From NCBI GenBank assembly GCA_964579435.1, contig CAZOGI010000001.1, positions 157,907 through 221,906 on the forward strand: a DNA stretch of 64,000 nucleotides. Direction: 5' to 3'. The notes under the pieces are model-generated. The model saw only the letters and a program-made list of their open reading frames with translations. It was not told the DNA's origin and did not search any database. Below are positions 1 to 38,729 of the stretch, one piece after another (within the stretch, counting starts at the first letter, position 1; each line of letters opens with the position of its first letter). Made by a program: the position numbers and the translations under genes. This DNA comes from an uncultured Planctomycetales bacterium. Its GTDB lineage: Bacteria > Omnitrophota > Gorgyraeia > Gygaellales > Profunditerraquicolaceae.

Positions 1-480
1 ATAGGGAATAAAGCGTTTGCAGTCAAACGACACCAGCCCCGAGAACTGCCAGTCATCGAGAACCGCTTTGTGCTTGACGACGCCGACATCGATCGAGTGC
101 GGATGGATACTGATGTGCTGAAAGCCGACGGTTGCTTTCAGGCGTTCGCCGGAAAAAGCGGCGTAGCGGAATCCGTAGCCTCCCCCCATATACGTCGGAT
201 AATCCAGTTCGTCCGCCGCCCCGGGGTGCTGCTTGATATATCCCGCCCCGCCCTTGAGGTCGACGCTGAATCGCTGCGTCAATCCGTACGAAAGCAGGAA
301 AAAATCCTGCCACGAGCGCAACTCGCCGGCAGAATGCTCCTGATAGCGGTTCAGGAGCGCATAGCTCTGCAGGCCGATCACGACCTGCCGCTTTTGCGGC
401 TGCGTCGGCCCCATGCAGGGCGCTGCCGTGGCAACCGCGGCCCAGGCCGTCAGAAGAAACCCGATCAGAAAAACCCTCAT
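1..480 (-). CDS. Partial CDS whose 3' end lies beyond the window start: signal-peptide protein, putative outer-membrane beta-barrel-like hypothetical
   Basis: Own translation of the minus strand from ATG at 478-480 gives MRVFLIGFLLTAWAAVATAAP... and stays open for 160 codons to position 1. The start overlaps the stop of the upstream gene as ATGA. It is absent from the ORF track because there is no stop inside the window. The Gly/Tyr/Phe-rich alternating pattern (YPTYMGGGYGFRYAAF) is beta-barrel-like. Confidence 0.5.
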   Translation of the reverse strand, partial: MRVFLIGFLLTAWAAVATAAPCMGPTQPQKRQVVIGLQSYALLNRYQEHSAGELRSWQDFFLLSYGLTQRFSVDLKGGAGYIKQHPGAADELDYPTYMGGGYGFRYAAFSGERLKATVGFQHISIHPHSIDVGVVKHKAVLDDWQFSGLVSFDCKRFIPY

Positions 481-1145
481 TGTCGCTTTCCTGCAGGAAA
501 CCCCCGCAGCGGACACTCCCCGCAGCGCGGATGCTGTTTATGGCAGTATTCTTTCGCGACCCTGACGAACAACGCGTGGTATTCGTTAAATAATTGTACC
601 TCTTTTTTCAGGTTTTTCATGAAAAATTTTTGCGCCTCCTCGTAGGAGACATCCTCCGGCAGCAGACGGTGACGCGCCAGAACGCGTTTCGTGTAGGCAT
701 CGACCACGAAAACCGGGCGGGCGAAGGCATAGAGAAGGATAGAGTCGGCGGTTTCCGGCCCCACGCCGTTGATCCGCAGCAACTCCTCCCGCAACTGCTC
801 CTGCGGCACCTGACGCAGTCGCGTCAGCCGGCCGCCGCAACGCCGCATCAGCCAGCCGAGTGTATTGCGCAGCCGTTGCGCCTTGAGCCGGTAATATCCC
901 GCGGGCCGGATCAACCGCTGCAATCTGCCGGTGCGTATGGATAAAACCCCCCGGAGAGAGAGTGCACGCGCCGCCCTGAGGTTACGGATCGCGCGCTCGA
1001 CGCTACCCCAGTTGGTGTTCTGGGTCAACACCGCTCCGACAATGACTTCGCAGGGGGTGCGCGCCGGCCACCACCCCTGCGGACCAAAATGCCGATAGAG
1101 CAGGCGAAAAAGGGAGCGCACCAGAACCTGTTCCGTGGCCGACAT
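477..1145 (-). CDS. HhH-GPD superfamily DNA glycosylase (endonuclease III-like)
   Basis: Motifs VIVGAVLTQNTNW, INGVGPETADSILLYAF and VFVVDAYTKRV. I prefer the internal ATG (MSATEQVL...) at 1145 over the track start at 1214. Confidence 0.7.
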   Translation of the reverse strand: MSATEQVLVRSLFRLLYRHFGPQGWWPARTPCEVIVGAVLTQNTNWGSVERAIRNLRAARALSLRGVLSIRTGRLQRLIRPAGYYRLKAQRLRNTLGWLMRRCGGRLTRLRQVPQEQLREELLRINGVGPETADSILLYAFARPVFVVDAYTKRVLARHRLLPEDVSYEEAQKFFMKNLKKEVQLFNEYHALFVRVAKEYCHKQHPRCGECPLRGFPAGKRQ

Positions 1146-1149
1146 ACGG

Positions 1150-3111
1150 TTATTCGGAGAACTGCAAGGGGTTATAGCCGTAATAGGCGAAGAGCGTGTA
1201 GGCGGTGCCGGCAACCGAACCAGTGGCTTTACCTTTGGGAGTCACCCAGCCATGGCCGGTATCAACCGACTGTTCCGAGGCATACGGCAGACAACCCTGC
1301 CCTTGTCCCGACGGAGAGGGACTGGAAATAACCATCTTTGCCAACTCATTGAGATAGGCGCTGGCCTTTTCTGCATAGAGCGCGGCCTTCGCGGCCTCGT
1401 TGCGCGAAGCAAAATAGCGCGAGAGGATCTGATACGAAACGACCATCTGGGCGGTCCATTCCGGGGAAACGATGCCGCCGCGGGCCAGGTGCCGCTGCGC
1501 CGCGAAATCAAACCCGCGCACGCGCACCGCCGCTCCCTCCGGGCGCACATAGGAAACCTCGACGCCGCACTGGGTCTCGGCGAACGCCATGATCTCCTGC
1601 GGATCCATGCCCAGCTCGCTGAGCTTTTCCGGTCCGATGCTGGCAATCGACCAGGCATAGGTATCGGTGGCCACCGTAGCATCGCCTTTGCCGCGCTGCA
1701 CCGGAACCTCGCCGCGGTCATAGGTATGCGCCTGGAGCCAGGAGAGCACCCGTTCCGCCGCCTGCTGGTATCGCTCGTGCCCGGTCATACGGCTCAGCAG
1801 ACGGTAAAAAGCGTAGGCATCCAGATTGTGCTCGGTAGCAAACCAGGAGACGTTGGGTCCGCCGCGGATACCGCCGCCGTCATCCTCCTGCTGCAACTGC
1901 AAGATGGCCGCGGCAATCTCCTGCGCCAGCGGCAGAAAGGTCTCGTCACCGGTCTGGCGGGTATACTGCAGCGCCGCGATTCCCAGCCAGATATTGGGTC
2001 CGGCATGCACGACGTATTCCGCAGGCGTCCCGTCGTTGAAATAATAGGCGTTGACGAAGCGGCCGTCGATGCGTTTTGCCCGCTGCGCGAAAAAGGCCAG
2101 GATATTCCGGGCGCGCGCCGCGTCGTTGAAGAGCAGGTACGCCTGCACCGCCAGCGCCTGGTCGTACACGAACGCCCAGCCGCCGACGGCATCGTCCCCT
2201 TCAAAACTCAAGACCAGGCCGGTGCGCGGATTCTGGTGCACCGCCAGCCACTGATACATTTTCTGGATATTGGCCTTCTCCAAGACCGCCTTACGGTGGA
2301 CCAGACGCGCTATCTGGGTGCTCGTCTGCGCCTCATTGGTCCGGACCCGCTGGAGGCGATGCTGCAGGATCGAGCGCTCCGTCAGGAGCTTGCCGATAAG
2401 CGTGTTGAGCTTGCTCAGGCGCTCTTCCTGGCGCAGGGACGAGGTACGCGCCGCCTCCAGATCGTTCAGATGTACCTCCAGCCGCTGCAACTTCTGTTGC
2501 AGATCCGCGCGCGCCGCGCTCAGGGAGTGGATCTGCTGCTCGGCCGCTGAGGTTTCCTGAGAGACTTTGACCAACTGGGAGATGAGCTGCTGGTTGCCGC
2601 TCACCAGCCGCGCGTTCCAAGCCGCGCTCAAAAGCAGACCGGCCCCCAGGAGAACGAAAATCCCGGCCACGATCGGCGCGGTCAACACGCGCGTCCAGGC
2701 AAAACGCAAAAGCATCCTGCCGTCCGCGGCATCGATCTGCTCATAGCGGACGCCGAAGAGATACCGGCCGACCCCGTCGGTATCCTGGCGCATCCAGGCC
2801 GCGGCGCCGCGGGCACTGACCAGGCGCTTGGTGAACGGAGTCTCGATCTCGAGGGAGAATTGTGCCTTCTGGGAAGCGAGCTTTTCTGCGGCGTCGGCGG
2901 AGAAACGGTTAACCGTCAGACAGATCCCGCCTTTACCTATATTGTTGGTGAAACCCTGGAACCACTCGGAGAGAAAATGTTTCCCGTCGCAGCTGACGAG
3001 CCTAAACTCAACCGGCAACACCGTATCCAGACGCAGGTATTGGCGGCGGTTCGACCGGTTGCCGGTGCCGGGCTGCCCCAAAGACTTATGGTCGCTGGCC
3101 GGGATCGTCAT
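1150..3111 (-). CDS. PilZ-domain protein with one TM helix, a coiled coil and a C-terminal (alpha/alpha)6 glycoside-hydrolase-like domain
   Basis: N-terminal PilZ-like motifs RRQYLR and NIGKGGICL. TM segment LTAPIVAGIFVLLGAGLLLSAAW, followed by a Gln/Leu-rich coiled coil. The C-terminal 350 aa resemble a six-hairpin glycosidase fold (WAFVYDQALAVQAYLLFND... NIWLGIAALQY... FATEHNLDAYAFYRLL). ATG at 3109-3111. Confidence 0.6.
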   Translation of the reverse strand: MTIPASDHKSLGQPGTGNRSNRRQYLRLDTVLPVEFRLVSCDGKHFLSEWFQGFTNNIGKGGICLTVNRFSADAAEKLASQKAQFSLEIETPFTKRLVSARGAAAWMRQDTDGVGRYLFGVRYEQIDAADGRMLLRFAWTRVLTAPIVAGIFVLLGAGLLLSAAWNARLVSGNQQLISQLVKVSQETSAAEQQIHSLSAARADLQQKLQRLEVHLNDLEAARTSSLRQEERLSKLNTLIGKLLTERSILQHRLQRVRTNEAQTSTQIARLVHRKAVLEKANIQKMYQWLAVHQNPRTGLVLSFEGDDAVGGWAFVYDQALAVQAYLLFNDAARARNILAFFAQRAKRIDGRFVNAYYFNDGTPAEYVVHAGPNIWLGIAALQYTRQTGDETFLPLAQEIAAAILQLQQEDDGGGIRGGPNVSWFATEHNLDAYAFYRLLSRMTGHERYQQAAERVLSWLQAHTYDRGEVPVQRGKGDATVATDTYAWSIASIGPEKLSELGMDPQEIMAFAETQCGVEVSYVRPEGAAVRVRGFDFAAQRHLARGGIVSPEWTAQMVVSYQILSRYFASRNEAAKAALYAEKASAYLNELAKMVISSPSPSGQGQGCLPYASEQSVDTGHGWVTPKGKATGSVAGTAYTLFAYYGYNPLQFSE

Positions 3112-3133
3112 CGAAAGAGGCCTCGCACGGCGT

Positions 3134-5563
3134 TCATTCCTTCTGACCCTGCGATAGTTTGTTCTGCCGCAGGACTATATGTTGTTTGCACCGGTATGCC
3201 AGGCGCTGCATAAATTCCCTGAATGCCGCGTACTCCGGAAGCGGAACCGTTGATTTCTTACGCACCAGCTCCTGCCTAAAAAATATTGTATTCTTTTTCT
3301 GGCGGTATGCAACCGTAAAAGACAGCCAGGGACTGTCTTCAAAGAAACTCTCCGGAAGCGAAAGGACGCTCAGGCTTGCAGGCAATTCGATCTGGAACTC
3401 ATTCTCCTTGGCTTCCAGGCATTCAAATTCAAGCGGATAGCTGCGCCTGGCCAGGGCGACCGCTGACACATCCAGGGAGGGAAGCTGCGGGATGATGCGC
3501 AGCGATCCGGCGCGCGCGAAATACTCCGGCCCGCGGAAAGAGTACCGCAGCAACGGCGTCTCTCCCAGCCCGGCGGCGTTCCTGGTCTCGTACCGGGACA
3601 GCTGCGCCCCGATAGAAAAATCCTGTATCCTGCCGGCCAGCTCCTGCTCGATGAGCTCCGGGGGCGTGAAGAGGAACCAGTGGCGCATGGCCTGCGCGTT
3701 CAGCCCGTAGGAAAGAACCGTCCGCTCCGCCAAAACCGATTCAGCATCAGCCTGTACCCACAGCTTCAGATCCTGCTTAAGCAGATTGTGGGCGGCCGCA
3801 AACGCCGGCGTCCGCAGGATCCGGTAGCCGTCGGGGCCGCAGAGCAGCACCGTGCGGTCCTGGTCGCCCAGCGGCAGATCCCCGAACGAGCAGGTCTGTG
3901 CCGTCGGATCGAGAAAAACCGTCTCCCCGTCGATCTCGGTGGCGGCGATACAATGGTTAAAGAGCACCGTCGAGAAATCGGCGCGCATGTCGGGCAGCTC
4001 CTTTGTCGGGATAAGCACCGGCCATCCCGGCAGCCCGGCGGCGCGCAGCATCGTCACCAAGAGAACCGCCTGATCTTTACAGTCGCCGTACTTGTTGCGG
4101 AAGATATCGGCGGCGGCGTGCGGCTCATACCCGGCCTCGCCGTATTCGACCGCGACATAGCGGATCTCCTGCGCACAATACTCGTAGAGCGCCTCTGCGC
4201 GTTCCCGCGGCGAACGCGCAGAACGCAGGAGCTCCCCGATTTTAGCCTGGATCGCCTCGTCCGCCCGGATCTTATCCTTCGCCAGATTCCACCACCACTC
4301 GTACACCTCCTGCCAGTCGTCAAACGTCGACAACAACACCGTCGGATTGATCCGGGCCTCCTCGGGCATGAGCGGCTCGGGAATGATCTGGGGGATATCC
4401 GCCATCACCCACTCATAGGCCGGCCCCCGCGCGGTCTCGGTTACGACCGGCTGCATCTTTACCCCGAAAGAGTTGTATTCCTCGTTGAGCAGGAGCGAAG
4501 AGAGCCTGCGTCCCGGAGGCAGGCTGACCTGAAGCGCCGCGCGCATGATCGGCTCACCCGACTGCACCGGATAGCGCAGCACAAAATCCTTGCCGTTGAT
4601 GAGCTCGTGCGAGACGATACGCGCCCGGTACTCGACGACCGAACCGACCGCCACTTCGGGGAAAGAGATGATGAGAACGCGCGCGTTGCTGTAGAGGGGG
4701 AAATTCAGGTACTTCGAAACGTCCCGCAGGTGCCTCGTCCCGACGTCGACGACCGTCCCGTCGGGCTTGATCGTGCGGGCATACTCCAGCTCTATCTTTT
4801 CGTACGTCGAATCGTACTCGAGGGGCAGCTCCGAGAATGCCTCTTTGCCGCGCTCGTTGAGGATCTTAATGACGTAATGCAGGCTCGTCTCCTGGCCGTT
4901 GCCGGGGCCGACGCTTAAACGTTCGTCACAGAGCAGGATGAGGGCGCCCGCCTGCGGGTACCGCTCTTTCCCCGGGGCTGCGGCGATCAAGGCGCTGATC
5001 TCGGGAGCGGCATCTCTGATATGAACCAGTCCCATTTGGCGTTCGATCGCGCCGATGCGCTCGGCGGCCCGGCCGGCAAATGCGGGTTGGGTGATCAAAC
5101 GGTAGTGCTGCAACGCCTGATCAAAGAGGTTCAGTTTCTCGGCGGTGAGGGCGCGGAAATATCGCATTTCTTCGTCAACGGGATCGTGCGTGCGCAACAC
5201 CTCCAGGGCATCGGTATACTGCCCGAGCCGATACAGCGTTATCCCCAGGTATTTGCGTGCCTCGGGCAGTGCGCTTTGACGCAGATGCTCCAGGGCTTTC
5301 TCGAACTCCGCGTGATCGAAATAGAGCCTCCCCAGCGCCGCATGCGTGCGGTCGGTATCGATGCCGCGGAGCAAACCTTCCTGATAGCCTGCAACCGCTT
5401 GACGGTAATAGGACGCCGAAACCTCCGCCAAACGAGCGGGAGAAGCGAGTCGTTCCTGACGGCAGCCGCCGGCGCAGCAGAAAAATGCCCCCAGCAGGAA
5501 CGCGCTCCCCAGAAGAACGCCCCGCTTTTTTCCCCCGAAGCGATTACGTAACGCGGTATTCAT
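3134..5563 (-). CDS. Transglutaminase-like (DUF3857-type) lipoprotein with N-terminal TPR repeats
   Basis: The internal ATG at 5561-5563 (MNTALRNRFGGKKRGVLLGSAFLLGAFFCCAGGC, a lipobox-like signal) is chosen over the 922-aa track ORF. TPR-like segment LGRLYFDHAEFEKALEHLRQ. Transglutaminase core Cys in YGDCKDQAVLLVTMLRAAGLPGWPVLIPT. Confidence 0.6.
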   Translation of the reverse strand: MNTALRNRFGGKKRGVLLGSAFLLGAFFCCAGGCRQERLASPARLAEVSASYYRQAVAGYQEGLLRGIDTDRTHAALGRLYFDHAEFEKALEHLRQSALPEARKYLGITLYRLGQYTDALEVLRTHDPVDEEMRYFRALTAEKLNLFDQALQHYRLITQPAFAGRAAERIGAIERQMGLVHIRDAAPEISALIAAAPGKERYPQAGALILLCDERLSVGPGNGQETSLHYVIKILNERGKEAFSELPLEYDSTYEKIELEYARTIKPDGTVVDVGTRHLRDVSKYLNFPLYSNARVLIISFPEVAVGSVVEYRARIVSHELINGKDFVLRYPVQSGEPIMRAALQVSLPPGRRLSSLLLNEEYNSFGVKMQPVVTETARGPAYEWVMADIPQIIPEPLMPEEARINPTVLLSTFDDWQEVYEWWWNLAKDKIRADEAIQAKIGELLRSARSPRERAEALYEYCAQEIRYVAVEYGEAGYEPHAAADIFRNKYGDCKDQAVLLVTMLRAAGLPGWPVLIPTKELPDMRADFSTVLFNHCIAATEIDGETVFLDPTAQTCSFGDLPLGDQDRTVLLCGPDGYRILRTPAFAAAHNLLKQDLKLWVQADAESVLAERTVLSYGLNAQAMRHWFLFTPPELIEQELAGRIQDFSIGAQLSRYETRNAAGLGETPLLRYSFRGPEYFARAGSLRIIPQLPSLDVSAVALARRSYPLEFECLEAKENEFQIELPASLSVLSLPESFFEDSPWLSFTVAYRQKKNTIFFRQELVRKKSTVPLPEYAAFREFMQRLAYRCKQHIVLRQNKLSQGQKE

Positions 5564-6638
5564 AGGAAATGGCACAACTCCCTTCCCGGGAGACCATACA
5601 CGGCCCCAGCGGAGACTGCGGCCTACAGCGGCGCGCGAACAACGGGCAGCGCGGCGGATCGAGCTTTCCCCGCAACACCGCAGCACAGCGACAGCCTTCC
5701 CGGGGAGAAACCGGCTGCCTCTGCCTCCGCAGCGCAACGGCATGCCGGGCATCAAAATGAGCGAATTGCGCCCGGAAAGAGAATCCGCTTTCCGCGATAG
5801 AGCCGAACCCGCGCCAGACCGCAGCTTTCGGTTCGAAGACGCGATCCAGGATGCGCTGGGCATGCACATTACCCTGTGGCCGCACGACCCGGCTATATCC
5901 ATTCTCGACCCGCGCGATGCCGCGGCGCAACTGCCGCAACAGCGTCAAGATCCCGCAGAGCATATCCGCAGGCTCAAACCCGGCCACACAACAGCCGATG
6001 CCGTACGTCCGGGCAAACGGCTCATACGCGCGCGTCCCGATAATAACCGACACATGCCCGGGACAGAGGATGCCGCTGATATCGACACCCTTGCCGCGCG
6101 CCAGGAACGAGAGGACCGGCGGGATACGCTTGAGCGCGTTGAGAAAAAAAAGGTTCCCGACCTTCTGGCGGCTGGCCTGCAAAACCGCCAGCGCCACTGC
6201 CGGGGCAGTTGTTTCGAATCCGACACCCAAAAAGACAATCTTTTGTCGCGGATTCTCCCGCGCCAGGGAGAGAGCCTCCAGCGGCGAATAGACCGTGCGA
6301 ATCCGGGCACCGGCTGCACGCGCCGCGGCAAGACTGCCAAAACTGCCCGGGACCAGCAGCATGTCCGCGAAGGTCGCCACCTGAACCCCGGGCGAGCGGG
6401 CATAGGCGATCGCCGTATCGATATAGCGTTGGTCGCTGACGCAGATCGGACAGCCGGGACCGGAGACCAGGCGGACCGTCTTCGGCAGATACCGGTTCAG
6501 GCCGAAGCGGTGGAAGGCGCGGGTATGCGTCCCGCAGACCTCCATCAGGACCGCCGGTTCCCGCGGCGCAAAGCGCTGCAGAAGCCCTCCGAGCCGTTCC
6601 AGATGCCGCGGGGAGCGGAACTCGTCAACAAATCTCAC
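5544..6638 (-). CDS. hypD: Hydrogenase maturation factor HypD
   Basis: N-terminus MRFVDEFR..., then LMEVCGTHT, GPGCPICV, and a C-terminal Cys cluster. GTG start at 6636-6638. Overlaps the hypC stop. Confidence 0.85.
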   Translation of the reverse strand: MRFVDEFRSPRHLERLGGLLQRFAPREPAVLMEVCGTHTRAFHRFGLNRYLPKTVRLVSGPGCPICVSDQRYIDTAIAYARSPGVQVATFADMLLVPGSFGSLAAARAAGARIRTVYSPLEALSLARENPRQKIVFLGVGFETTAPAVALAVLQASRQKVGNLFFLNALKRIPPVLSFLARGKGVDISGILCPGHVSVIIGTRAYEPFARTYGIGCCVAGFEPADMLCGILTLLRQLRRGIARVENGYSRVVRPQGNVHAQRILDRVFEPKAAVWRGFGSIAESGFSFRAQFAHFDARHAVALRRQRQPVSPREGCRCAAVLRGKLDPPRCPLFARRCRPQSPLGPCMVSREGSCAISYEYRVT

Positions 6639-6834
6639 GTAACACCCTCAGGGTCTCGGCGGCCCGCCGGGGATCGATCTTCTCGATGGCGAAACCGGCA
6701 TGGACCAGAACATACTCCCCGACCGCGACGCCCGGGACCATGGCGATGTTTATCCGTCGCTGCAGCCGCCCGGCAGCGACCGTGGCAAACGAGCCCTCTT
6801 TACTGACGATCTTCAACGGAACGGCAAGGCACAT
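6625..6834 (-). CDS. hypC: Hydrogenase assembly chaperone HypC/HupF
   Basis: N-terminal MCLAVP motif, 69 aa, directly upstream of hypD. Confidence 0.85.
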   Translation of the reverse strand: MCLAVPLKIVSKEGSFATVAAGRLQRRINIAMVPGVAVGEYVLVHAGFAIEKIDPRRAAETLRVLREIC

Positions 6835-6837
6835 ATC

Positions 6838-7983
6838 TTAACCCTGGAAAGAAGAAAACCGGCTCTTCGGTGAACAGGAAGCGATGACCGCCTGCCCGAG
6901 GGAGACCGACGCGTCCCCCGCGGGAAGCCGGCGATGCACCCGCACGCAAAACCCCGCTTTATATAGTAACGCACCCAGGTGCTCCCGCACAAGGGTATTG
7001 TGCATGACCCCGCCCGCAGCCACCACCGTGTTGATTCCCGTTCTGGCGCGCAGGCGCACGCATACCGCCGCAGCAAGGTGCGCCACGGAATAGTGCAGCG
7101 CGGCCGCAATATCCGCGCGGCTTTGTTTGGCCTTCAGGTCAACGACGATCCCGCGCACGATCCCACCGAGGGCAACCTCCAGGCATCCTGCACGTTCCCG
7201 CAGGCGGTACGGATACAGCCGCGGCGGGTTCCGGCTGCGGCGGGCCAGCGCTTCGAGTGCCCGCGGCAGCTGCGCCTCGGCGCACGAATCCCGGCAACAC
7301 AGGATGATGCTCGCCGCGGCATCAAAAAGACGCCCGGCGCTGCTGGAGAGCGGCGACGCAAATCCGCTGGCAGCCAGCGCCAGAACCGCCCGTGCTTTTT
7401 TGCGGGGAAGGCCTTTTAAAAAACTCAAGCCCTGCCGCCACAGACGCTCGCCGTAGAGACGCTGCAGCCATACCAAAGCCACCCGCCACGGCTCCCGGAT
7501 CGCCGCTTCTCCTCCGGGCAGAACAACAGTCTCAAGGTGCCCGGCGCGGATATAGCTGCGGTAATCGCAGATCAAAAACTCTCCTCCCCACAGCGTGCCG
7601 TCGCTGCCGTACCCGGTGCCGTCAAAAGCGATGCCGATCACCCGGCGGTTAGGCAGGCCGCTTTCGGCCATAGCCGCAGCGATATGCGCGTGGTGATGCT
7701 GGACGCGGACCAGGGCCACCCGGCGCCGGGCCGCCACCTCCTGCGCGTACCGGGACACGCTATAGCCTGGATGCAAATCCGCCGCCAGAACGTGCGGCCC
7801 CCTCTGCATCCACCGACGGACCGCTTCCCTGAAGCGCACGCGCTGGCGATACTCGCTGCAGTCGCCGTGGAGACGCGAGAAAGAGGCGGACCGGCCGGAG
7901 GCGAAACAGAGGGTATTTTTCGTTTCGGTGCCGAAGGCCAAAACCGGGGTCGGAACCGGGAAAGGCAGCGCAAGCCTATGCAT
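6838..7983 (-). CDS. HypF-like carbamoyltransferase, Kae1/TsaD-like C-terminal domain only (no acylphosphatase, Zn-finger or YrdC domains)
   Basis: AFGTETKNTLCFASG matches the start of the HypF Kae1-like domain. Histidine-rich HHHAHIAAA and GGVMHN motifs. The start was moved to the internal ATG (MHRLALPF) at 7983. Adjacent to hypC and hypD. Confidence 0.6.
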   Translation of the reverse strand: MHRLALPFPVPTPVLAFGTETKNTLCFASGRSASFSRLHGDCSEYRQRVRFREAVRRWMQRGPHVLAADLHPGYSVSRYAQEVAARRRVALVRVQHHHAHIAAAMAESGLPNRRVIGIAFDGTGYGSDGTLWGGEFLICDYRSYIRAGHLETVVLPGGEAAIREPWRVALVWLQRLYGERLWRQGLSFLKGLPRKKARAVLALAASGFASPLSSSAGRLFDAAASIILCCRDSCAEAQLPRALEALARRSRNPPRLYPYRLRERAGCLEVALGGIVRGIVVDLKAKQSRADIAAALHYSVAHLAAAVCVRLRARTGINTVVAAGGVMHNTLVREHLGALLYKAGFCVRVHRRLPAGDASVSLGQAVIASCSPKSRFSSFQG

Positions 7984-8818
7984 CGTTTCCCTCCGCAGCC
8001 ACCAGCTCCAACGAAACGATCGCATCGACCCGGAACGTCCGCTCGGCACCGCGCAGCAGGCAATGCCCGCGCACGTACGAAACGCCGTTTTCCTTGAGGA
8101 TCTGCTGCGGCACGATCAAACGTTGGCTGAGCGGGCCGCCGCTTTTCGCCAAGTAGCGAATCGCAAGGCGCGCCCCGTCGTCGATCGCCTCCTGGATGCG
8201 CGAGATCTTTTCCTGTTCGCGGGCAGCCAAAGCGCTGTGGGGAAGCGCACAAAGATCCAGGAACGTATCGGTATCCCTGATGCCTTTTGCCTGCAGCAGA
8301 CCAAGCAGGGCCAGAAAAACACGCGCGGTCAACTCCACATCCGCTCCGGCGCGGTGCGCCTGAGGAATGCCCAGGCCCAGCGCCTGCGCCACCGCCTGCA
8401 GCGAATAGCGCTCCTGTCCCGGCAAGAGCCGGCGCGCCAGCCGCAGGATATCCGCCACTATCATCTCTGCCGGTTCCGCCAACCCTGCCGCTGCAAGCTC
8501 GGCGCGCAAAAACGCCAGGTCAAAACGGGCGTTGTAGGCGCAGACGCAGCTGCCCTGGATAAAGCGCAGAAACTCCGGCAGCACCGCGCGGCAGACGGGC
8601 TTGCCCGCCAGCATTGCGTCGCTGATATGGTTGACCGCGAAGGCGGCCGGCGACACCGGGCGTTGCGGATCGATGAGTGTTTCAAAAACCGCCTCGGTCA
8701 CGTCCCCGCGCAGACGCAGTGCCGCCAACTCGACGATACGGTCTCCCGTCTCCGGATTCAGTCCGGTCGTCTCGGTATCGAATATGGTAAAAACGGTACG
8801 GTCAAGCGCCTGTCCCAT
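7976..8818 (-). CDS. DnaQ-like 3'-5' exonuclease (DEDDh) fused to a C-terminal WYL-like domain
   Basis: Exo I motif FDTETTGL, then YNARFDLAFL and HRAGADVELT. C-terminal LAIRYLAKSGGPLSQRLIVPQQILKENGVSYVRGHCLLRGAERTFRVDAIVSLELV matches the WYL consensus (the ...RtFrldRI.. motif). Confidence 0.6.
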   Translation of the reverse strand: MGQALDRTVFTIFDTETTGLNPETGDRIVELAALRLRGDVTEAVFETLIDPQRPVSPAAFAVNHISDAMLAGKPVCRAVLPEFLRFIQGSCVCAYNARFDLAFLRAELAAAGLAEPAEMIVADILRLARRLLPGQERYSLQAVAQALGLGIPQAHRAGADVELTARVFLALLGLLQAKGIRDTDTFLDLCALPHSALAAREQEKISRIQEAIDDGARLAIRYLAKSGGPLSQRLIVPQQILKENGVSYVRGHCLLRGAERTFRVDAIVSLELVAAEGNDA

Positions 8819-9710
8819 GCCCCGGATACGCTACAAACGCCGGAATTAAACGCAGCGGACGGTACGATCTCTTGACCGCTCGCAGGTTCTCCAGTCCGGA
8901 ATCGTCCATAACGTTGATAAACGGATACGCGCGGAGTTCCGCGCAGAGCTCGCGGAAGATATATTGGGCCGCCCCCTTCAACGCAAGGTCGGTGAATTCA
9001 AAGAGGACGCAGAATGTCCGGGGGCTCAAGGCCACCCCGAAGGTGAAGGCGCAGAGTATGCCGTCGGCCGTCGCCACCCGGCCGATGCCCCCGAGTTTTT
9101 CAAAACCATCCAGGAGCACCCGCAGGCAACTGAAGGTGTCCTCGAGCATGCCCCGGTAAAGCGGATCGCTGCTGCGCTCCCGGCGCTGGCACATCCACCG
9201 CTGAAAGAGGCGTACGCATTCCTGCCGGTCGCTGCCCCGGTACGGCCGGTACTGCGCCCGGCAGTGTTTGACGAAATAATTGTACGCGGCGCGCTTTGAT
9301 TTATAGGCGTTGCCCGTCAGCCGGGCAAGACAGGAGCGATCGCAGACGTACTCCCCGGATTTCTCGCTGCAAGAAAACCCGCCTTCGGCAAACAACGCAC
9401 GTTCCGGAGCTTCGATATTCTCGATCCGGGTAACGCCGCTTTCGCCGTTTATCCGGCGCAGGCGCTCACCCGCAGTACGCGCCGCCACGATCCTCTTGCC
9501 CTTACCCAGCGGTGGCAGAAAGAGGAACGCGCCGACGCGGTCCCGGAAAAACACGCACAGCTGTTCGTCGATGAGCTGCCATTCTATGCGATAGAGCTCT
9601 TGCCAGATAAAAATGGAAGCGAAGGCGTACGCGGACAATTCGTGTTCGCGCTCACCCAGAAACAAAGAAAAAGTCCGACGATGCGCATACTGCAGCTTAT
9701 GCAGGCTCAT
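8802..9710 (-). CDS. DUF2156 domain protein (homolog of the C-terminal aminoacyl-tRNA-dependent transferase domain of MprF/LysX)
   Basis: GNAYKSKRAAYNYF motif plus overall pattern. 302 aa, stand-alone. The family assignment is from memory, not a search. Confidence 0.5.
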   Translation of the reverse strand: MSLHKLQYAHRRTFSLFLGEREHELSAYAFASIFIWQELYRIEWQLIDEQLCVFFRDRVGAFLFLPPLGKGKRIVAARTAGERLRRINGESGVTRIENIEAPERALFAEGGFSCSEKSGEYVCDRSCLARLTGNAYKSKRAAYNYFVKHCRAQYRPYRGSDRQECVRLFQRWMCQRRERSSDPLYRGMLEDTFSCLRVLLDGFEKLGGIGRVATADGILCAFTFGVALSPRTFCVLFEFTDLALKGAAQYIFRELCAELRAYPFINVMDDSGLENLRAVKRSYRPLRLIPAFVAYPGHGTGA

Positions 9711-10203
9711 GCGGGATATCCAGCTCGATAAGCTCCAAAACGTCCTCGTACGCCTGGATGATCTGCGGATTTTCGCTCAGGAGCCTGCGGTAGGCGCGGG
9801 AATTGAGCAGTTCGGTCAGCGAGGAGACATGCGCCTTGAACGCCGGCTGCGCCAGCCGGGAGGCGACATACGGGCAATTCAGGTCGACCGTCAATACCAC
9901 GCGCTTCTTGCGTACATTCAGCAGAAACGGATACAACTGGCATTCAAATGGCCGGGTCGCGTAGACCTTGCATTTGTTCGAAGCGCGCTCAAGGAACGGA
10001 CACCAGAAATATCCCGCGCTCTCGTCGGGCACCAGGACCAGCCGCTTATCCGGCGAGATCGAAACGGCGGGGGCGGCGGCGTCGACAAAGGAGAGGATCT
10101 CCTCCTCCAGCAGACAGGGCGCCCATGCCGAATGCGCCTCCCGGAACCGACAGCATCCCTGGCAGGAAAGGCAGACCTGCGACGGAACGAATTGCGGGAT
10201 CAT
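9697..10203 (-). CDS. YkgJ-family Zn/Fe-S cysteine-cluster protein (UPF0153)
   Basis: CLSCQGCC and CPFL...C...C cysteine spacing. 168 aa. Overlaps both neighbours. Confidence 0.55.
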   Translation of the reverse strand: MIPQFVPSQVCLSCQGCCRFREAHSAWAPCLLEEEILSFVDAAAPAVSISPDKRLVLVPDESAGYFWCPFLERASNKCKVYATRPFECQLYPFLLNVRKKRVVLTVDLNCPYVASRLAQPAFKAHVSSLTELLNSRAYRRLLSENPQIIQAYEDVLELIELDIPHEPA

Positions 10204-10520
10204 TTAACCACGCTGCCGACGGCGACCTTCTTTTCCGGAGTCACGATAACCGGACCGCTCTCACCCGATGCAGCCAGGAGCATCCCCTGGCTTTCGACAC
10301 CTCGCAGCATCGCGGGCTCCAAATTGTCGACCAGCACGACCTGCCTGCCGATCAGGGAGTCCTTGTCATAGGCGTTGCGGATCCCCGCAACGACCTGTTT
10401 GCTGCGGCCGCCGACGTCCAACGTTATAACGTAAAGCCGGTCTGCGTTCGGATGCTCAGTGACCGCGGTAATCTCGGCAATACGCAGCTCAAGCTTTTTA
10501 AAATCATCGATCGTGATCAT
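10200..10520 (-). CDS. tRNA-binding protein (CsaA/Trbp111-like EMAP/OB-fold domain; MetG C-terminal-like)
   Basis: LRIAEITAVTEHPNADRLYVITLDVGG...QVVAGIRNAY, 106 aa. GGAGGGGGT sits upstream of the ATG. Confidence 0.65.
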   Translation of the reverse strand: MITIDDFKKLELRIAEITAVTEHPNADRLYVITLDVGGRSKQVVAGIRNAYDKDSLIGRQVVLVDNLEPAMLRGVESQGMLLAASGESGPVIVTPEKKVAVGSVVK

Positions 10521-10544
10521 ACCCCCTCCGGTGCCCCGCTGCCG

Positions 10545-12068
10545 TTAGAACGTCCATTCCAAAGACAACTCTACCTGGTAAGCCGCATCCGCCTTTGCGT
10601 CTCCCCGCACGAAAGGGGTCAAAAGGCTCCCGTCGACGTCATCGCGCCGCTCCCGGTAAAAATTCCCGGGGATAAAGTAACCGGCAAGCAGGCTTACCAG
10701 GGCGCGTTCGTTCATTTGATAATCGAGCGTCACATCCACTTCATAGCCCAGCTCTGCCGAGAGCGCGCGCGGCTCCCCTTCCCACATGCCGACCCCCCGG
10801 GCAAAACAACGAAGATAGTATCCCTGCACCGTCACCAACACCGCATCGGTGAGGGATACCTCACAGCCCAGAGAAGGCATCAGCAGATTATCGTAATCAG
10901 ACGCCCCGAAGGTCCCGGGACGGGGAACCCCGTAATTGAGACCCCACCCGCTGCCCATTGCCACCAGCGGCTTGGCATCGCAGCTCTCCTGGCCGATGGA
11001 GTCGCCCTGGGCCTGATTGAGCGACGAGAAGACGCTGAACGCCCGGTTTTTGCCGCGGGAGAGTGTCGCATCTTGCGCCAACACTTCCTCCTCGGTAACG
11101 GCGTTGCCGGAACAGACGAGGAATTCCCCGAACGGGACGACCCGTTCTTTCCCGTAGGCTACCCTGCCGTATACCAGATATCCCTGATGCTGAATATCCT
11201 TAAAGGAGGGGTCGCCGCTTTGGGCAACCCCGAAATTGCGGGCGCACTCCGCCTTGAACGCAAAAGGCGCAGCCTCATAGGTCAGGGCAAACCCTGCGGT
11301 GCCGAGGATATCGTGCTTTACCGGCGCGCCCCAGAGCGAATCGCGTTTGCCGGCCGCAGTATAATCGCTTAGTACCCCGCAGTACGGCTGCAGCCACAGC
11401 CGCTCCCTGCGCCAGGAGAGATCAGCTGCCCAGAAGTTGATCGCCCCCGGATGGTAATCAATCCCTTGCTCCTCGTCCTGACGGATACGCGCACCGAGAT
11501 GGTTTTTCAGGTGCGCGTCCGGCCGGCAGTAGTAGAGGTGCCAGGAGAACGGCTCCGCCTCGCGGTACAATTTCACGCCGATGTTCTCATAACTGCCGTT
11601 GAGGCTCATCCCCAGTCCGACGACATAGCTCGTCAGGCCGGCCTGGACCCGGAAACGGTCCCGCCAGGGCACATCCACCCACAACTCCTCCAACTGCGGG
11701 AGAAGCTCATCGTCACGGTACGCCTCGATGCGGCCGCCCGACGTCAAAAGAGCATTGCTTACCCACAGCGGCGCCGAATAATCGAACGGCCCGTTGCGTT
11801 CTATCTTCAGATATGCCCGCAGGCCATCGTCTTTGTGCGTATACCCCAACCCCAGGCTGTAATCAAACCCGATCGACGCGCTGCGGTCATCGGTGTTGCG
11901 ATGATCGAGGTCCACCGTATTCTCGAAAGTCACCGCATCCGTGCGTTGATACAGCTGCAGGGTCACCTCGGCCCGGGGCGTATCCATAACCGTCAAAGCC
12001 TGCGCGCCGCCTCCGCCGGCACACAGCACCCCCGCCAGACCAAAAACAAGAAAAACTGCCCGCCGCAT
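10545..12068 (-). CDS. Putative outer-membrane beta-barrel protein (alginate-export/porin-like)
   Basis: Signal peptide MRRAVFLVFGLAGVLCAGGGGAQA. Alternating aromatic/Gly beta-strand pattern. C-terminal ...LEWTF aromatic terminus. Confidence 0.4.
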   Translation of the reverse strand: MRRAVFLVFGLAGVLCAGGGGAQALTVMDTPRAEVTLQLYQRTDAVTFENTVDLDHRNTDDRSASIGFDYSLGLGYTHKDDGLRAYLKIERNGPFDYSAPLWVSNALLTSGGRIEAYRDDELLPQLEELWVDVPWRDRFRVQAGLTSYVVGLGMSLNGSYENIGVKLYREAEPFSWHLYYCRPDAHLKNHLGARIRQDEEQGIDYHPGAINFWAADLSWRRERLWLQPYCGVLSDYTAAGKRDSLWGAPVKHDILGTAGFALTYEAAPFAFKAECARNFGVAQSGDPSFKDIQHQGYLVYGRVAYGKERVVPFGEFLVCSGNAVTEEEVLAQDATLSRGKNRAFSVFSSLNQAQGDSIGQESCDAKPLVAMGSGWGLNYGVPRPGTFGASDYDNLLMPSLGCEVSLTDAVLVTVQGYYLRCFARGVGMWEGEPRALSAELGYEVDVTLDYQMNERALVSLLAGYFIPGNFYRERRDDVDGSLLTPFVRGDAKADAAYQVELSLEWTF

Positions 12069-12096
12069 ATCAGCCTCCCGTGAACGGGCTGCGTTC

Positions 12097-12468
12097 CTAT
12101 TGCAGATATTTGCGGATAAACCGGAAGAGCTCTTGCCACTGGAACGGCTTTATAAAGTAATCCTTGGCGCCGAAGGCCATCCCCTCCTCGATATACTGGG
12201 TCTGGCCTTTGGCCGTCACCATGATAACCGGGATCTCGTGGGTGGCATCATGGGCCTTGAGCTGCCGCAGGAGCGTCAATCCGTCCGGGTGCGGCATGAG
12301 GATATCCAGGAGGATGAGGTCCGGCCGCTCTTGGACCGCCAGGGCGAGCGCTTCGGAGGAGTTGGTGGCGCAGATCGCCCGGTACCCTTCGCGCTCCAGG
12401 CGTTCCCGCATGAGCGAGACCACCTCTGGTTCGTCGTCGATCACCAGCAGCGTGTACGGTTTCTTCAT
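12097..12468 (-). CDS. Stand-alone response-regulator receiver domain (CheY-like)
   Basis: The internal ATG gives MKKPYTLLVIDDEPEV...LILLDILMP...VIMVTAKG, 123 aa. The start overlaps the stop of the upstream radical SAM gene by 4 nt. Confidence 0.7.
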   Translation of the reverse strand: MKKPYTLLVIDDEPEVVSLMRERLEREGYRAICATNSSEALALAVQERPDLILLDILMPHPDGLTLLRQLKAHDATHEIPVIMVTAKGQTQYIEEGMAFGAKDYFIKPFQWQELFRFIRKYLQ

Positions 12469-13877
12469 CTGCCTCGCAACAGCATCTTGGCCAAACCCCA
12501 GGCTGCCTGCATATTGAGCCTGAACCGGTTGAGACTGCGCATGCGCAGGAACTCCCTGACGATCTTGGACGGACGCAGATAAAAAGAACGGTATGCCCGG
12601 TGCTGCCATGCCAGCAACTCCTCCGGAGTCAACCCCGGGAGACGATGGATCGGCGGCGTATGGATCCCGAAACGGCGGTAATCGCGGGTCAGGATCGCGT
12701 CTTTGCTCAGGAGGAAATCGTACACCTCGCTTCCGGGATAGGGCTTCAGGATATGGAATTTGGCGATGTCCGGATCGAGCTCTTGGGCAAAGGATATCGT
12801 CTGACGGATCGAATCGGGGGTCTCCGCAGGCAACCCGATCATAAAAAACCCCCACAGCTCCAGGCGTAATTCCCGCGCCAGCGCGAACACCTCTTTGAGC
12901 CGGGCGATGTGCGTTCCCTTATGCGCCGCGTCCAGAACCTCCTGGCTGCCGGATTCCACCCCGATAGCCAGACTGTAGGTCCCCATCTCCTTGAGCGCCG
13001 TTAATACCTCGCGCGAAAGAAAATCGGCGCGGATCCCGTTGGGAAAGGCGAAACAGACCTTGAGCTTGCGCCGCTGGATCTCGTCGCGGATGGCGAAGAC
13101 CCGTTGGCGGTCGGTCGTGAAATTGTCGTCCCAGACATGGATCTCGCGGATACCGTAGCGGCGCACCAACTGTTCGATTTCATCGGCAACCCGCAGCGCG
13201 CTGTGCGCCCGGAAGACCCGGCCGCAAACCCGGTGTGACATGCAGTAGCTGCACCGGCCGGGACAGCCGCGGCTGGTCATGATCGGCGCGGTCCGGCGGT
13301 AAAGCGCGTCGGGATACGTGTAGTGGGTGACCGAAAAAAGGTGCCGTGCCGGAAAGGGCAACCGGTCCAGATCCGTCAGAAGCGGACGCGCTTCATTTTC
13401 GACAATACCCCCGGTTTCGTCCTTGTATGAGAGCCCGCGCACGCCGGCATAAGAACCCCCGGCCTTCAGACAATCAACCAGCTCCCGCAGCGTCTCCTCC
13501 CCTTCCCCGCGCACGACCATATCGACCGCCGGATTCCGCAACACCTCCCGCGGCAGGATCGTCGGATGCGTTCCCCCGAAAACGACGCGGGTCTGCGGAC
13601 TGTATCGCTTGACCGCGGCAGCCAGGTCAAACGCGGTAAAGAGCAGCGGGGTCGTGACGGTGCAGCCGAAAAGGTCGAAACGTTCGGCGCGGATCAGCGC
13701 GACAAAATCGTCGAGCGTCAGGCGCTGGGCCTCCATATCCACCACGCGCACCTCTTCCTGCAGGAGCATCGCCGCCAGGTAGGCCAGTCCCATATGCAGC
13801 TGCACCGGGGAGCGCATCGGCCCGTAGATATCGCTGGCGGGGGGATTGACCAGCAGGATGCGTACGTTCTTTTTCAT
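12465..13877 (-). CDS. B12-binding-domain radical SAM protein
   Basis: N-terminal B12-binding-like MKKNVRILLVNPP... Radical SAM MTSRGCPGRCSYCMSH CxxxCxxC-type cluster. ATG at 13875-13877. Confidence 0.7.
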   Translation of the reverse strand: MKKNVRILLVNPPASDIYGPMRSPVQLHMGLAYLAAMLLQEEVRVVDMEAQRLTLDDFVALIRAERFDLFGCTVTTPLLFTAFDLAAAVKRYSPQTRVVFGGTHPTILPREVLRNPAVDMVVRGEGEETLRELVDCLKAGGSYAGVRGLSYKDETGGIVENEARPLLTDLDRLPFPARHLFSVTHYTYPDALYRRTAPIMTSRGCPGRCSYCMSHRVCGRVFRAHSALRVADEIEQLVRRYGIREIHVWDDNFTTDRQRVFAIRDEIQRRKLKVCFAFPNGIRADFLSREVLTALKEMGTYSLAIGVESGSQEVLDAAHKGTHIARLKEVFALARELRLELWGFFMIGLPAETPDSIRQTISFAQELDPDIAKFHILKPYPGSEVYDFLLSKDAILTRDYRRFGIHTPPIHRLPGLTPEELLAWQHRAYRSFYLRPSKIVREFLRMRSLNRFRLNMQAAWGLAKMLLRGR

Positions 13878-13897
13878 CGTGGCAGAGGAGGCGTCGT

Positions 13898-13935
13898 TAA
13901 AAAAAACTCCGCACAAAACGTGCGGAGTTTTTTGT
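13898..13935. terminator. Bidirectional rho-independent terminator
   Basis: Perfect 9-bp stem actccgcac/gtgcggagt with a 5-nt loop, flanked by an A8 run upstream and a T6 run downstream, so it functions on either strand. Lies between the entericidin-like gene and the radical SAM gene. Confidence 0.6.
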
Positions 13936-27109: not shown

Positions 27110-27421
27110 GGGGGGGTCTTATCCGTAGGGGCATTGTAACACTTTTACCGGGGGGCGACAAGCAAAAACCGGGCAAAAAAAATCCCCGCCTGTGCCGTTG
27201 TAGCCTGGTGGGCTGTGAACCTTCCGGTTACACGTGGGTGCCCGCTCCGCAGGCACGCATGCGCCGCGGAAGAGAGGCTCCCTTTTTTTTGGTGTTGGCT
27301 CACCAATCACCAGGCTCTTGAACGAACACTGCAGGGACTCTTTTCTGCTGCACCTTTGAGTATACCACGGGGGCCCGCCTCTGTCAAACCCGCGCTCTCC
27401 CGAACACAAAGGCGCGCCGCA

Positions 27422-38558: not shown

Positions 38559-38583
38559 AACAACCGCTTGATTCCGTCTCAAA

Positions 38584-38666: not shown

Positions 38667-38729
38667 GCAGCTTTTCTTCGCACCCGTTAGCGCGCGCGCC
38701 CTCCCTGCCGGTGCGCACGGGAGTGGGAA

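Follow-up and report, generated by a model that had tools for sequence, protein, structure and literature searches.

Known relatives of the components

To our knowledge, all characterised DUF2156 enzymes take aminoacyl-tRNA away from translation and use it on lipids, sterols or antibiotics. We know of no aminoacyl-tRNA transferase that requires a metal-cluster domain, and of no DUF2156 enzyme that requires either such a domain or an OB fold of the Trbp type. Some of these enzymes are provided with tRNA-handling partners. In LysX (an MprF–LysRS fusion) and in the fungal ErdS (an AspRS–DUF2156 fusion) the DUF2156 domain is joined to a module that binds tRNA and presumably channels it in its charged form (PMC6103681, PMC7334510), while the valanimycin enzyme VlmA, a soluble and free-standing PF09924 protein without a flippase, has a dedicated partner in the SerRS VlmL from the same cluster and uses a small-molecule acceptor (PMC9379638, PMC6103681). 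The fungal ergosteryl-glycine synthase ErgS is also free-standing and takes its aminoacyl-tRNA from the cellular pool (PMC8913301).

The Omnitrophota locus described here resembles VlmA in having a soluble DUF2156 protein that stands alone without a flippase. Its putative tRNA-handling partner is, however, a 106-aa OB fold, whereas VlmL is a complete aminoacyl-tRNA synthetase, and this separate Trbp-type fold, predicted to grip only the 3'-CA end, replaces the covalent synthetase fusion of LysX and ErdS. VlmA/VlmL and the azodyrecin enzyme Ady7 lack a YkgJ domain and belong to actinobacterial secondary metabolism rather than to a phylum-wide core operon, and the Omnitrophota protein, unlike VlmA and Ady7, falls in the branch of 2HQY. 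ErgS differs in being eukaryotic, in its sterol acceptor and in having neither a metal-cluster nor an OB-fold partner. A sequence-only reading of this DNA took a soluble system of this kind to be undescribed, but soluble free-standing DUF2156 aminoacyl-tRNA transferases are known in VlmA, Ady7 and ErgS (PMC9379638, PMC8913301).

The 2HQY branch has a literature of its own. The structure 2HQY (BT_3689) was reported with acetyl-CoA in the active site, and deletion of the free-standing DUF2156 gene HPB8_1270 of Helicobacter pylori led to less acetylation of RNase J lysines (PMC10700544). Neither of these genes has a YkgJ or tRNA_bind neighbour, unlike those of Omnitrophota. The cysteine-cluster domain of the YkgJ protein is shared with FliB, which binds a [4Fe-4S] cluster (PMC8598068), and with DpdM, described as a YkgJ homologue (bioRxiv 10.1101/2023.04.13.536721). 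These two are stand-alone methyltransferases of primary amines (flagellin lysines and preQ1, respectively), with no DUF2156 pairing or fusion.

Organisation of the locus

The ORFs of the three overlapping minus-strand genes were recovered exactly where the sequence-only reading had placed them in the window (the whole stretch of 64,000 nucleotides that was analysed), and its tRNA-binding, YkgJ and DUF2156 domain assignments all have Pfam matches above gathering scores (Table 1).

Table 1. Genes and gene junctions of the module and its downstream neighbour, in window coordinates
Feature	Position	Strand	Size and basis
tRNA_bind OB-fold gene	10200..10520	minus	106 aa; ORF and PF01588
YkgJ-type cysteine-cluster gene	9697..10203	minus	168 aa; ORF and PF03692; obligate partner of the DUF2156 protein
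Free-standing DUF2156 tandem-GNAT transferase gene	8802..9710	minus	302 aa; PF09924; 2HQY-like subfamily
DEDDh 3'-5' exonuclease-WYL gene	7976..8818	minus	280 aa; PF00929 and PF13280
ATGA stop/start overlap, tRNA_bind/YkgJ	10200..10203	minus	4 nt; from sequence
YkgJ stop/DUF2156 start overlap	9697..9710	minus	14 nt; from sequence

The first ATG, that of the tRNA_bind gene, is preceded by a Shine-Dalgarno sequence (GGAGGGGG, 10522–10529). At the other end of the module the DUF2156 gene shares 17 nt with the exonuclease/WYL gene, which is probably overlapped in turn, by 8 nt, by a gene for a HypF C-terminal part with its start ATG at 7983. Because this chain of overlaps continues downstream, and because all genes from about 477 to 13916 are co-directional with overlaps or gaps of no more than 28 nt, overlap within the window is not special in itself, and the junctions take their weight from the comparison with other genomes. 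Rfam and ARAGORN found no RNA elements and no tRNA genes in the 5–16 kb part of the window, and promoter and terminator scans of the locus stayed at chance level.

Conservation of gene order in Omnitrophota

Synteny was assessed in 80 other GTDB species of Omnitrophota. The order tRNA_bind–YkgJ–DUF2156 occurs in about 75 of them, usually with the exonuclease/WYL gene next, and both flanks are variable: depending on lineage, an outer-membrane protein gene, V-ATPase-like genes or others lie upstream, and HypF, pabBC-like genes or others downstream. The YkgJ and DUF2156 genes are adjacent in 78 species, and tRNA_bind immediately precedes YkgJ in 73 of the 80 loci; at three loci it is missing next to the module. 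Overlaps occur at the tRNA_bind/YkgJ junction in 55 of 73 species (with the identical 4-nt ATGA in 52), at the YkgJ/DUF2156 junction in 48 of 78 (with the same 14-nt overlap in 31) and at the DUF2156/exonuclease junction in 39 of 74.

A reverse scan of metagenome loci with tRNA_bind as the seed found YkgJ and DUF2156 directly downstream in 46 of 50 cases (92%), and in four a tRNA_bind orthologue lies beside a TadA-like gene without the module. In about 200 species the module lies within conserved core-genome surroundings and not on a variable island. YkgJ and DUF2156 thus form a tight core, and tRNA_bind, though very often next to it, is dispensable, so that the 'trio' proposed as a unit is better described as this core with a separable tRNA_bind gene and a frequent fourth gene, that of the exonuclease.

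The YkgJ–DUF2156 enzyme

The YkgJ protein matches PF03692 (CxxCxxCC) at 31.2 bits (cut-off 23), and the eight Cys of its domain are invariant across 79 orthologues and 42 fusion proteins. The fusions were drawn from NCBI, JGI, ENA and Logan assemblies; in an enzyme family of 516 clusters at E <= 1e-30, 61 of the best 150 cluster representatives (50% identity) are YkgJ::DUF2156 single polypeptides, of 420–545 aa. Since they form one polypeptide in so many representatives, YkgJ (Cys8, a predicted metal-cluster domain) and DUF2156 are two parts of one enzyme, encoded here by separate, translationally coupled genes, and the 14-nt overlap lies at the position of the continuous fused ORF in sister lineages. 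That the split is a frameshift artefact was ruled out, as it is found in 78 species, 31 of which share the 14-nt overlap.

Of nine fusion loci, five still have tRNA_bind immediately upstream, with different flanks in each, and in the other four it is not beside the fusion gene; neither tRNA_bind nor the exonuclease is fused to the enzyme in any of the best 150 representatives. The sequence-only reading had named beforehand the co-occurrence of the genes in other genomes as its refutation test, and within Omnitrophota this co-occurrence is strong, with the fusions as independent support. The association is lacking at the Bacteroides 2HQY orthologue and, for tRNA_bind, in the four fusion loci.

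The DUF2156 protein matches PF09924 (LPG_synthase_C) at 80.7 bits (cut-off 27.5), over profile positions 8–298 of 298. It consists of a tandem GNAT only, with no membrane helix and no flippase domain, in agreement with the stand-alone form first proposed, and its most hydrophobic 19-residue window falls in core beta strands. It is similar to 2HQY, the subfamily's only close relative of solved structure, over its full length in both sequence and fold, and among the structural neighbours of the whole protein 2HQY comes first and is followed only by aminoacyl-tRNA transferases, with acetyl-CoA tandem GNATs lower. A homologue search with 2HQY returned, among the matches listed, only near-identical Bacteroides proteins, and at the one Bacteroides locus inspected the orthologue has neither YkgJ nor tRNA_bind in its neighbourhood; it adjoins another GNAT gene, near pta-ackA.

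As the family profile A1, run against the PDB, reached none of the MprF chains at E <= 10, MprF was compared by manual motifs only, with the sequences of 4V36, 7F47 and 6LV0 set by hand against the orthologue alignment. By eye and without superposition, V279-K280-x-S-Y283-x-P285 corresponds to F-K-x-K-Y-x-P of MprF, and D241-L242, also by eye, to the D-L of its DLMR motif. The Arg of DLMR, which we tentatively take to be the catalytic Arg contacting the alpha-carbonyl in aaPGS, is not kept in the orthologues, the equivalent position being L244, which is variable, with K245 next to it. A catalytic Arg has been described in aaPGS (PMC6103681). The beta4-alpha3 loop of GNAT lobe II (D241-L-x-x-K-G246-x-A248) is short, with the canonical length of CoA-binding GNATs, whereas it is longer in MprF; its G246 is invariant and the loop is compatible with acetyl-CoA. 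The helix between the lobes (residues 134–149, NAYKSKRAAYNYFVKH) has a net charge of +4. K137, R140 and N144 are kept by at least 95% of the 81 orthologues, and K139 by at least 90% of the 32 members of alignment A1, and a basic helix in this place is common to aminoacyl-tRNA transferases (PMC6103681, PMC7334510).

The identification of the protein as an aminoacyl-tRNA transferase, carried over from MprF in the sequence-only reading, is therefore unsafe for the 2HQY-like subfamily, given the acetyl-CoA reported and the distance of MprF from the profile. Aminoacyl-tRNA is a plausible donor, and is put no higher because of the ligand of 2HQY and the link of the H. pylori homologue to protein acetylation.

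The tRNA-binding protein

The OB protein matches PF01588 (tRNA_bind) at 98.1 bits (3.2e-28), above the gathering score. Among PDB structures its closest matches are the MetRS C-domain 1MKH (5.5e-27) and Trbp111 (1PYB), and CsaA structures are far weaker matches (about 1e-8, against 1e-27 to 1e-20 for the MetRS C-domain and Trbp111). It scores 111.2 bits with TIGR00399 (metG_C_term; cut-off 116.65) and 50.4 bits with TIGR02222 (CsaA; cut-off 119.65). Judged by these profile and structure matches, the protein is of the Trbp111/MetRS-C type and not, as had been suggested, of the CsaA type. Neither the window nor 1.56 Mb of further loci contained a metG gene.

Trbp-type OB folds bind the 3'-terminal CA of tRNA and may accommodate aminoacyl-tRNA (PMC11286949). 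The Arg, Ser and Met residues that contact the 3'-CA have been defined (PMC11286949, PMC12021450), and those of Trbp111, the MetRS C-domain, Arc1p and MCP1, all EMAPII-like OB folds, are also present in the OB protein (PMC11286949), where R73, S77 and M80 are invariant across 71 orthologues. The Lys required for the deacylase activity of Arc1p (K269) and MCP1 (K326) (PMC12021450) is, in contrast, replaced by Glu or Asp in an alignment made by motif spacing and by eye; position 68 is acidic throughout the 71 orthologues (Glu in 45, Asp in 25). EMAPII-like OB folds are otherwise solitary or fused to aminoacyl-tRNA synthetases, whereas the OB gene here is operon-linked to a GNAT enzyme. Because four loci have an orthologue beside a TadA-like gene, the OB protein may have a general tRNA role.

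Possible functions of the module

We tentatively favour, with a probability of roughly 0.4, the reading that the locus forms the core of an operon, present throughout Omnitrophota, for a tRNA-linked acyl-transfer enzyme. The OB-fold dimer would take hold of (aminoacyl-)tRNA by its single-stranded 3'-CA and pass this end to the GNAT active site, the basic inter-lobe helix would dock the acceptor stem, and a conserved core of Asp241, Asn266, Lys280 and Tyr283 would transfer the tRNA-esterified aminoacyl group to an acceptor, which may be a lipid, a small molecule or a protein, with chemistry as in MprF, Fem and VlmA. YkgJ would contribute a metal centre with a structural or redox role, or carry out a follow-up step. 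The tRNA-handling partners of LysX, ErdS and VlmA offer precedents (PMC6103681, PMC7334510, PMC9379638), and the fusions, the synteny, the reverse scan, the basic helix, the C-terminal Lys motif and the contact residues of the OB fold together suggest tRNA-linked transfer. Several features argue against it: the short CoA-type loop, the loss of the DLMR Arg, the position of MprF beyond profile reach, the non-obligatory tRNA_bind, the lack of both partners at the Bacteroides 2HQY orthologue, the want of a known aminoacyl-tRNA transferase that depends on a metal cluster, the lowered RNase J acetylation in the H. pylori mutant and the fact that unrelated genes in compact co-directional genomes overlap too. 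An aminoacyl-tRNA donor in particular is indirectly contradicted by the acetyl-CoA reported in 2HQY, by far the closest relative.

The module points to an undescribed tRNA-linked acyl-transfer system, and its fusions and synteny define a large uncharacterised enzyme family that combines a Cys8 domain with a tandem GNAT and, likely, a tRNA 3'-end-binding accessory. It is a cloneable system in which to ask which donor, aminoacyl-tRNA or acetyl-CoA, serves the free-standing DUF2156 proteins of the 2HQY-like branch, and a handle both on the function of YkgJ-family cysteine-cluster domains and on the physiological role of free-standing Trbp111-like proteins, a question as old as the proteins' discovery. 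Study of the module may also bring to light a modification of the envelope or of a metabolite that nearly all members of Omnitrophota, a poorly understood candidate phylum, have in common.

A possible, if doubtful, alternative to tRNA-linked transfer is that YkgJ and DUF2156 form an acyl-CoA (acetyl-CoA)-dependent N-acyltransferase, of the kind suggested for the 2HQY/HPB8_1270 subfamily, which would acetylate a protein substrate or a small molecule. The 2HQY ligand, the contribution of the H. pylori homologue to lysine acetylation, the loop with its invariant G246, the GNAT and pta-ackA neighbours in Bacteroides and the failure of the profile to reach MprF are all in keeping with this, and if the OB partner is functional, such an enzyme could acylate a tRNA-borne substrate (the amine of aminoacyl-tRNA or the tRNA itself), in which case the metal-cluster domain would be comparable to the Fe-S domain of Elp3. 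We know, however, of no DUF2156 protein biochemically shown to use acetyl-CoA; the H. pylori result is a partial in vivo effect without an in vitro assay, the structural neighbours after 2HQY are all aminoacyl-tRNA transferases, and the basic helix and Fem/MprF-type C-terminal Lys motif are conserved. The linkage to tRNA_bind bears on a further explanation, which we consider unlikely, in which only YkgJ and DUF2156 work together, tRNA_bind being either a housekeeping chaperone for tRNA, similar to Trbp111, or the beta subunit of MetRS in detached form. The exonuclease would be a housekeeping DnaQ-family enzyme, and operon inertia in streamlined genomes would hold both genes in place beside the enzyme. 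The generic Trbp/MetRS-C character of the OB protein, just below the TIGR00399 cut-off, would fit, as would the lack of tRNA_bind fusions among the best 150 representatives, the module without tRNA_bind in four of nine fusion loci and a few split loci, the tRNA_bind genes beside TadA-like genes in four of 50 loci and the frequent synteny and overlap of functionally unrelated hyp and outer-membrane genes. Yet the linkage has outlasted rearrangement, with at least three upstream and at least three downstream contexts and gene fission and fusion; it is kept despite insertion of a YjbQ or lipoprotein gene between the two linked genes, the ATGA coupling is identical in 52 of 73 species and the reciprocal linkage reaches 92%.

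The exonuclease/WYL protein, with matches to PF00929 (7e-33) and PF13280 (WYL; 2.7e-13), enters two further readings. In one, which we hold to be quite improbable, the module is a three-component enzyme on the tRNA 3' end: the OB fold would deliver the terminal CA, or the aminoacyl group attached to it, to the metal-cluster-dependent GNAT, which would modify aminoacyl-tRNA or A76, by N-acylation or another modification with acetyl-CoA, possibly with SAM and Fe-S chemistry, in a logic analogous to the rSAM and GNAT of Elp3, while the DEDDh exonuclease would trim the processed ends. Were this true, it would be a new 3'-end modification or quality-control pathway rather than lipid or metabolite aminoacylation. 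The other, an anti-phage defence or stress module, is disfavoured and we give it hardly any weight. DEDDh and WYL domains often occur close to CRISPR and other defence loci, and the exonuclease/WYL protein matches generic DEDDh and WYL models of PADLOC, but PADLOC has no match for the other three proteins, the setting is core-genome as described above, and the exonuclease is dispensable in several lineages. The exonuclease gene is absent or displaced in five Omnitrophota loci and absent from three of the fusion loci; it follows DUF2156 in 74 of 80 species, in 59 of these within 30 nt or overlapping. It is thus a frequent but dispensable fourth gene whose link to the module is uncertain. Its Exo I–III acidic residues and His (D14, E16, D100, H155 and D160) are conserved.

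The YkgJ–DUF2156 enzyme in split and fused forms

The YkgJ and DUF2156 proteins constitute one enzyme, encoded here by two genes and in fusion lineages by a single one. An OB-fold gene of the tRNA 3'-end-binding type is linked to it in over 90 % of the closest lineages and, among the fused lineages sampled, in about half. The three overlapping minus-strand ORFs lie exactly where the sequence-only reading had placed them, each protein has a Pfam match above the gathering cut-off, and the DUF2156 assignment made in that reading is borne out over the full length of the profile.

Genes of the block and other located features in the window
Feature	Position	Strand	Product and match	Remark
tRNA_bind OB-fold gene	10200-10520	minus	106 aa; PF01588, 3.2e-28	
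YkgJ gene	9697-10203	minus	168 aa; PF03692 CxxCxxCC, 3.6e-7	
DUF2156 gene	8802-9710	minus	302 aa; PF09924 LPG_synthase_C/DUF2156, 1.3e-22, full profile length	
DEDDh-exonuclease/WYL gene	7976-8818	minus		17-nt overlap with DUF2156 gene
HypF gene	6838-8049, likely start ATG 7983	minus	~380 aa; PF17788 and PF22521	
6S RNA	27179-27340	minus	Rfam RF00013, 61.4 bits	
tRNA-Val(GAC), tRNA-Leu(UAA), tRNA-Cys(GCA) cluster	38482-38804	minus		adjoins likely thrS (36671-38425); not near block
tRNA-Glu(UUC)	53467-53541	plus		lone gene, not near block

When the DUF2156 orthologues were made into a profile and compared with 1.84 billion cluster representatives, 516 proteins matched at E<=1e-30. Among the best 150 representatives, 61 are 420-545 aa long with the DUF2156 match lying in the C-terminal 300 residues, and an HMM built on YkgJ orthologues from Omnitrophota matches the N-termini of these long proteins (1e-15 to 1e-51); both PF03692 and PF09924 were found by Pfam in eight of the ten fusion proteins tested. 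The fusions are drawn from independent NCBI, JGI, ENA and Logan assemblies, the named ones being Omnitrophota MAGs; in one cluster, eleven of the thirteen members are 501 aa long. All eight YkgJ cysteines are invariant in both split and fused forms. Such fusion into one polypeptide is classical evidence that YkgJ and DUF2156 act together. No fusion of tRNA_bind or the exonuclease to YkgJ/DUF2156 occurs among the same 150 representatives. A tRNA_bind gene (106-108 aa) nevertheless lies upstream of the fusion gene, amid unrelated flanks, in five of the nine loci inspected (directly in L092, L093 and L094, with a YjbQ gene intervening in L090 and L091), and in the other four the fusion gene is solitary.

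The YkgJ protein is modelled confidently by AF2 (pLDDT 89), and two relatives in its family have been characterised: FliB methylates lysine with a [4Fe-4S] cluster and SAM (PMC8598068), and DpdM is proposed to methylate preQ1.

Conservation of gene order across Omnitrophota

In the window the tRNA_bind/YkgJ junction is an ATGA stop/start overlap, the YkgJ/DUF2156 junction overlaps by 14 nt, and a Shine-Dalgarno sequence, GGAGGGGG, precedes tRNA_bind, the first of the three genes. The exonuclease/WYL gene in turn overlaps the downstream HypF C-terminal-domain gene by 8 nt, if the likely start of the latter is taken. Overlap here tells little by itself, since all genes from about 477 to 13916 are co-directional, with gaps of at most 28 nt.

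Comparison between genomes is more telling. Its homologues place the source organism in Candidatus Omnitrophota. When GTDB species representatives were scanned by pattern, 198 species proved to carry a DUF2156 orthologue, and the best 80, all Omnitrophota-type MAGs at 41-49 % identity, were fetched. The order tRNA_bind–YkgJ–DUF2156–exonuclease/WYL is kept on a single strand in nearly all of these 80. Among them the tRNA_bind/YkgJ junction overlaps in 55 of 73 species (52 with the same ATGA), the YkgJ/DUF2156 junction in 48 of 78 (31 with the identical 14 nt) and the DUF2156/exonuclease junction in 39 of 74. The flanks vary by lineage: upstream lies an outer-membrane protein gene (22/51 loci), or V-ATPase-like subunits or others, and downstream a short HypF gene (36/64), a pabB-like/pabC-like pair (25-31/64) or others. 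Rearrangement has therefore occurred around the block and rarely within it. Exceptions among the 80 loci are the absence of tRNA_bind (three), an intervening gene between tRNA_bind and YkgJ (two) and an absent or displaced exonuclease gene (five). In two species the DUF2156 gene is immediately preceded not by YkgJ and tRNA_bind but by a 434-aa ORF, integrase- or recombinase-like by eye (L027, 2619-3923; L062, 4595-5899), which suggests that insertion of a mobile element broke the block.

In the reciprocal direction, tRNA_bind orthologues from metagenomes served as seeds, and 46 of the 50 loci with sufficient flank carry YkgJ and DUF2156 directly downstream; the remaining four (L125, L139, L152, L169) have alongside an ORF identified by eye, from its N-terminal sequence, as a TadA-like deaminase. 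A YjbQ/UPF0047 (PF01894) gene was seen between tRNA_bind and the YkgJ or fusion gene in L067 (5032-5457), L090 (5585-6004) and L091 (5559-5975).

The OB-fold protein

The OB-fold protein had been called CsaA-like, an identity that has to be given up: its closest relatives are MetRS C-terminal domains (1MKH, 5.5e-27) and Trbp111 (1PYB), and CsaA is distant. Neither the window nor the 1.56 Mb of loci fetched contains a metG gene. According to a 2024 co-crystal study, recognition of tRNA by such an OB fold is limited to the single-stranded 3'-terminal CA, and an attached aminoacyl group may be tolerated (PMC11286949). The residues corresponding to its Arg, Ser and Met contacts, namely R73, S77 and M80, are invariant in the orthologues (n=71). 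MCP1 and Arc1p were shown in a 2025 study to deacylate Ala-tRNA, an activity dependent on a Lys, an Arg and a Ser (PMC12021450); whereas those proteins need the Lys, residue 68, aligned to it by motif spacing, is Glu/Asp in 70 of the 71 Omnitrophota orthologues.

Acyl donor and possible function

The DUF2156 protein (model pLDDT 92.3) has features pointing in two directions. A basic helix (134-149, net +4) lies between its lobes, as described for aminoacyl-tRNA transferases in general (PMC6103681, PMC7334510), and comparison of conserved residues shows that MprF sequences and the DUF2156 family share the D-L of DLMR, a loop Gly and an Asn, together with a C-terminal hK-x-x-Y-x-P (K280, Y283, P285). 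In contrast to MprF, the family does not conserve the DLMR Arg and lacks an insert of ~30 residues. Its profile did not detect MprF domains in sequence searches, which places the window protein in the branch of PF09924 typified by 2HQY, the structure of Bacteroides BT_3689. The active site of 2HQY is reported to hold acetyl-CoA, and deletion of the free-standing H. pylori homologue HPB8_1270 partly lowered acetylation of four RNase J lysines (2023; PMC10700544). In the family of the window protein the beta4-alpha3 loop of lobe II is short, of canonical CoA-binding GNAT length. In Bacteroides (L082/L083) the 2HQY orthologue is flanked by lrgAB on one side and a gene for a 338-aa Acetyltransf_9 GNAT on the other, with neither YkgJ nor tRNA_bind nearby. 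The candidate donor is accordingly either aminoacyl-tRNA or acyl-CoA. Immediately upstream in these Bacteroides loci, on the opposite strand, are pta and ackA.

We favour, at a probability of roughly 40 %, a tRNA-linked transfer in which an OB-fold dimer would recruit the 3' end of (aminoacyl-)tRNA, the tandem GNAT would pass the aminoacyl group to an acceptor by Fem/MprF-type chemistry, and YkgJ might contribute a metal centre or carry out a subsequent modification. It seems somewhat less likely that YkgJ and DUF2156 instead form an acyltransferase dependent on acetyl-CoA, perhaps with a substrate carried on tRNA, as the 2HQY and H. pylori precedents might suggest against the MprF-like residues. 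We consider it unlikely that the OB-fold and exonuclease genes are housekeeping genes kept beside the enzyme by operon inertia; solitary fusion genes stand on one side of that question, and an inner order kept while flanks vary on the other. A defence module is very improbable, the only matches of that kind being generic DEDDh and WYL ones.

Soluble, free-standing DUF2156 enzymes that use aminoacyl-tRNA are already known, namely VlmA, with its dedicated SerRS VlmL, Ady7 and fungal ErgS (PMC9379638, PMC8913301), and DUF2156 domains are coupled to tRNA-handling modules in LysX and ErdS (PMC6103681, PMC7334510). The sequence-only reading took such a system to be undescribed, which was too broad for the soluble enzymes but stands for the linkage: literature searches on DUF2156/PF09924, YkgJ/PF03692, 2HQY, Trbp111 and Omnitrophota turned up neither a YkgJ–DUF2156 enzyme nor its association with a Trbp-type OB fold.

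Neighbouring genes and the origin region

The window HypF comprises the C-terminal Kae1-like part only, without acylphosphatase, zinc-finger and YrdC-like domains. The short form (median 373 aa) adjoins hypC and hypD across the Omnitrophota loci that carry it, and close by in L051 there is a separate ORF of 93 aa that resembles acylphosphatase. The pabB-like chorismate-binding (~456 aa) and pabC-like class-IV aminotransferase (~274 aa) genes, none of which is in the window, often follow the YkgJ–DUF2156 module or the exonuclease gene, as in L091-L094, L036, L041 and L067. Positions 42000-48000 form a replication-origin neighbourhood with parB, parA, yidC, dnaA (45674, plus strand), dnaN, gyrB and gyrA, named by eye from N-terminal sequences; G+C drops there from ~0.61 to 0.43-0.48, and the minimum of the cumulative GC skew falls near 46 kb.
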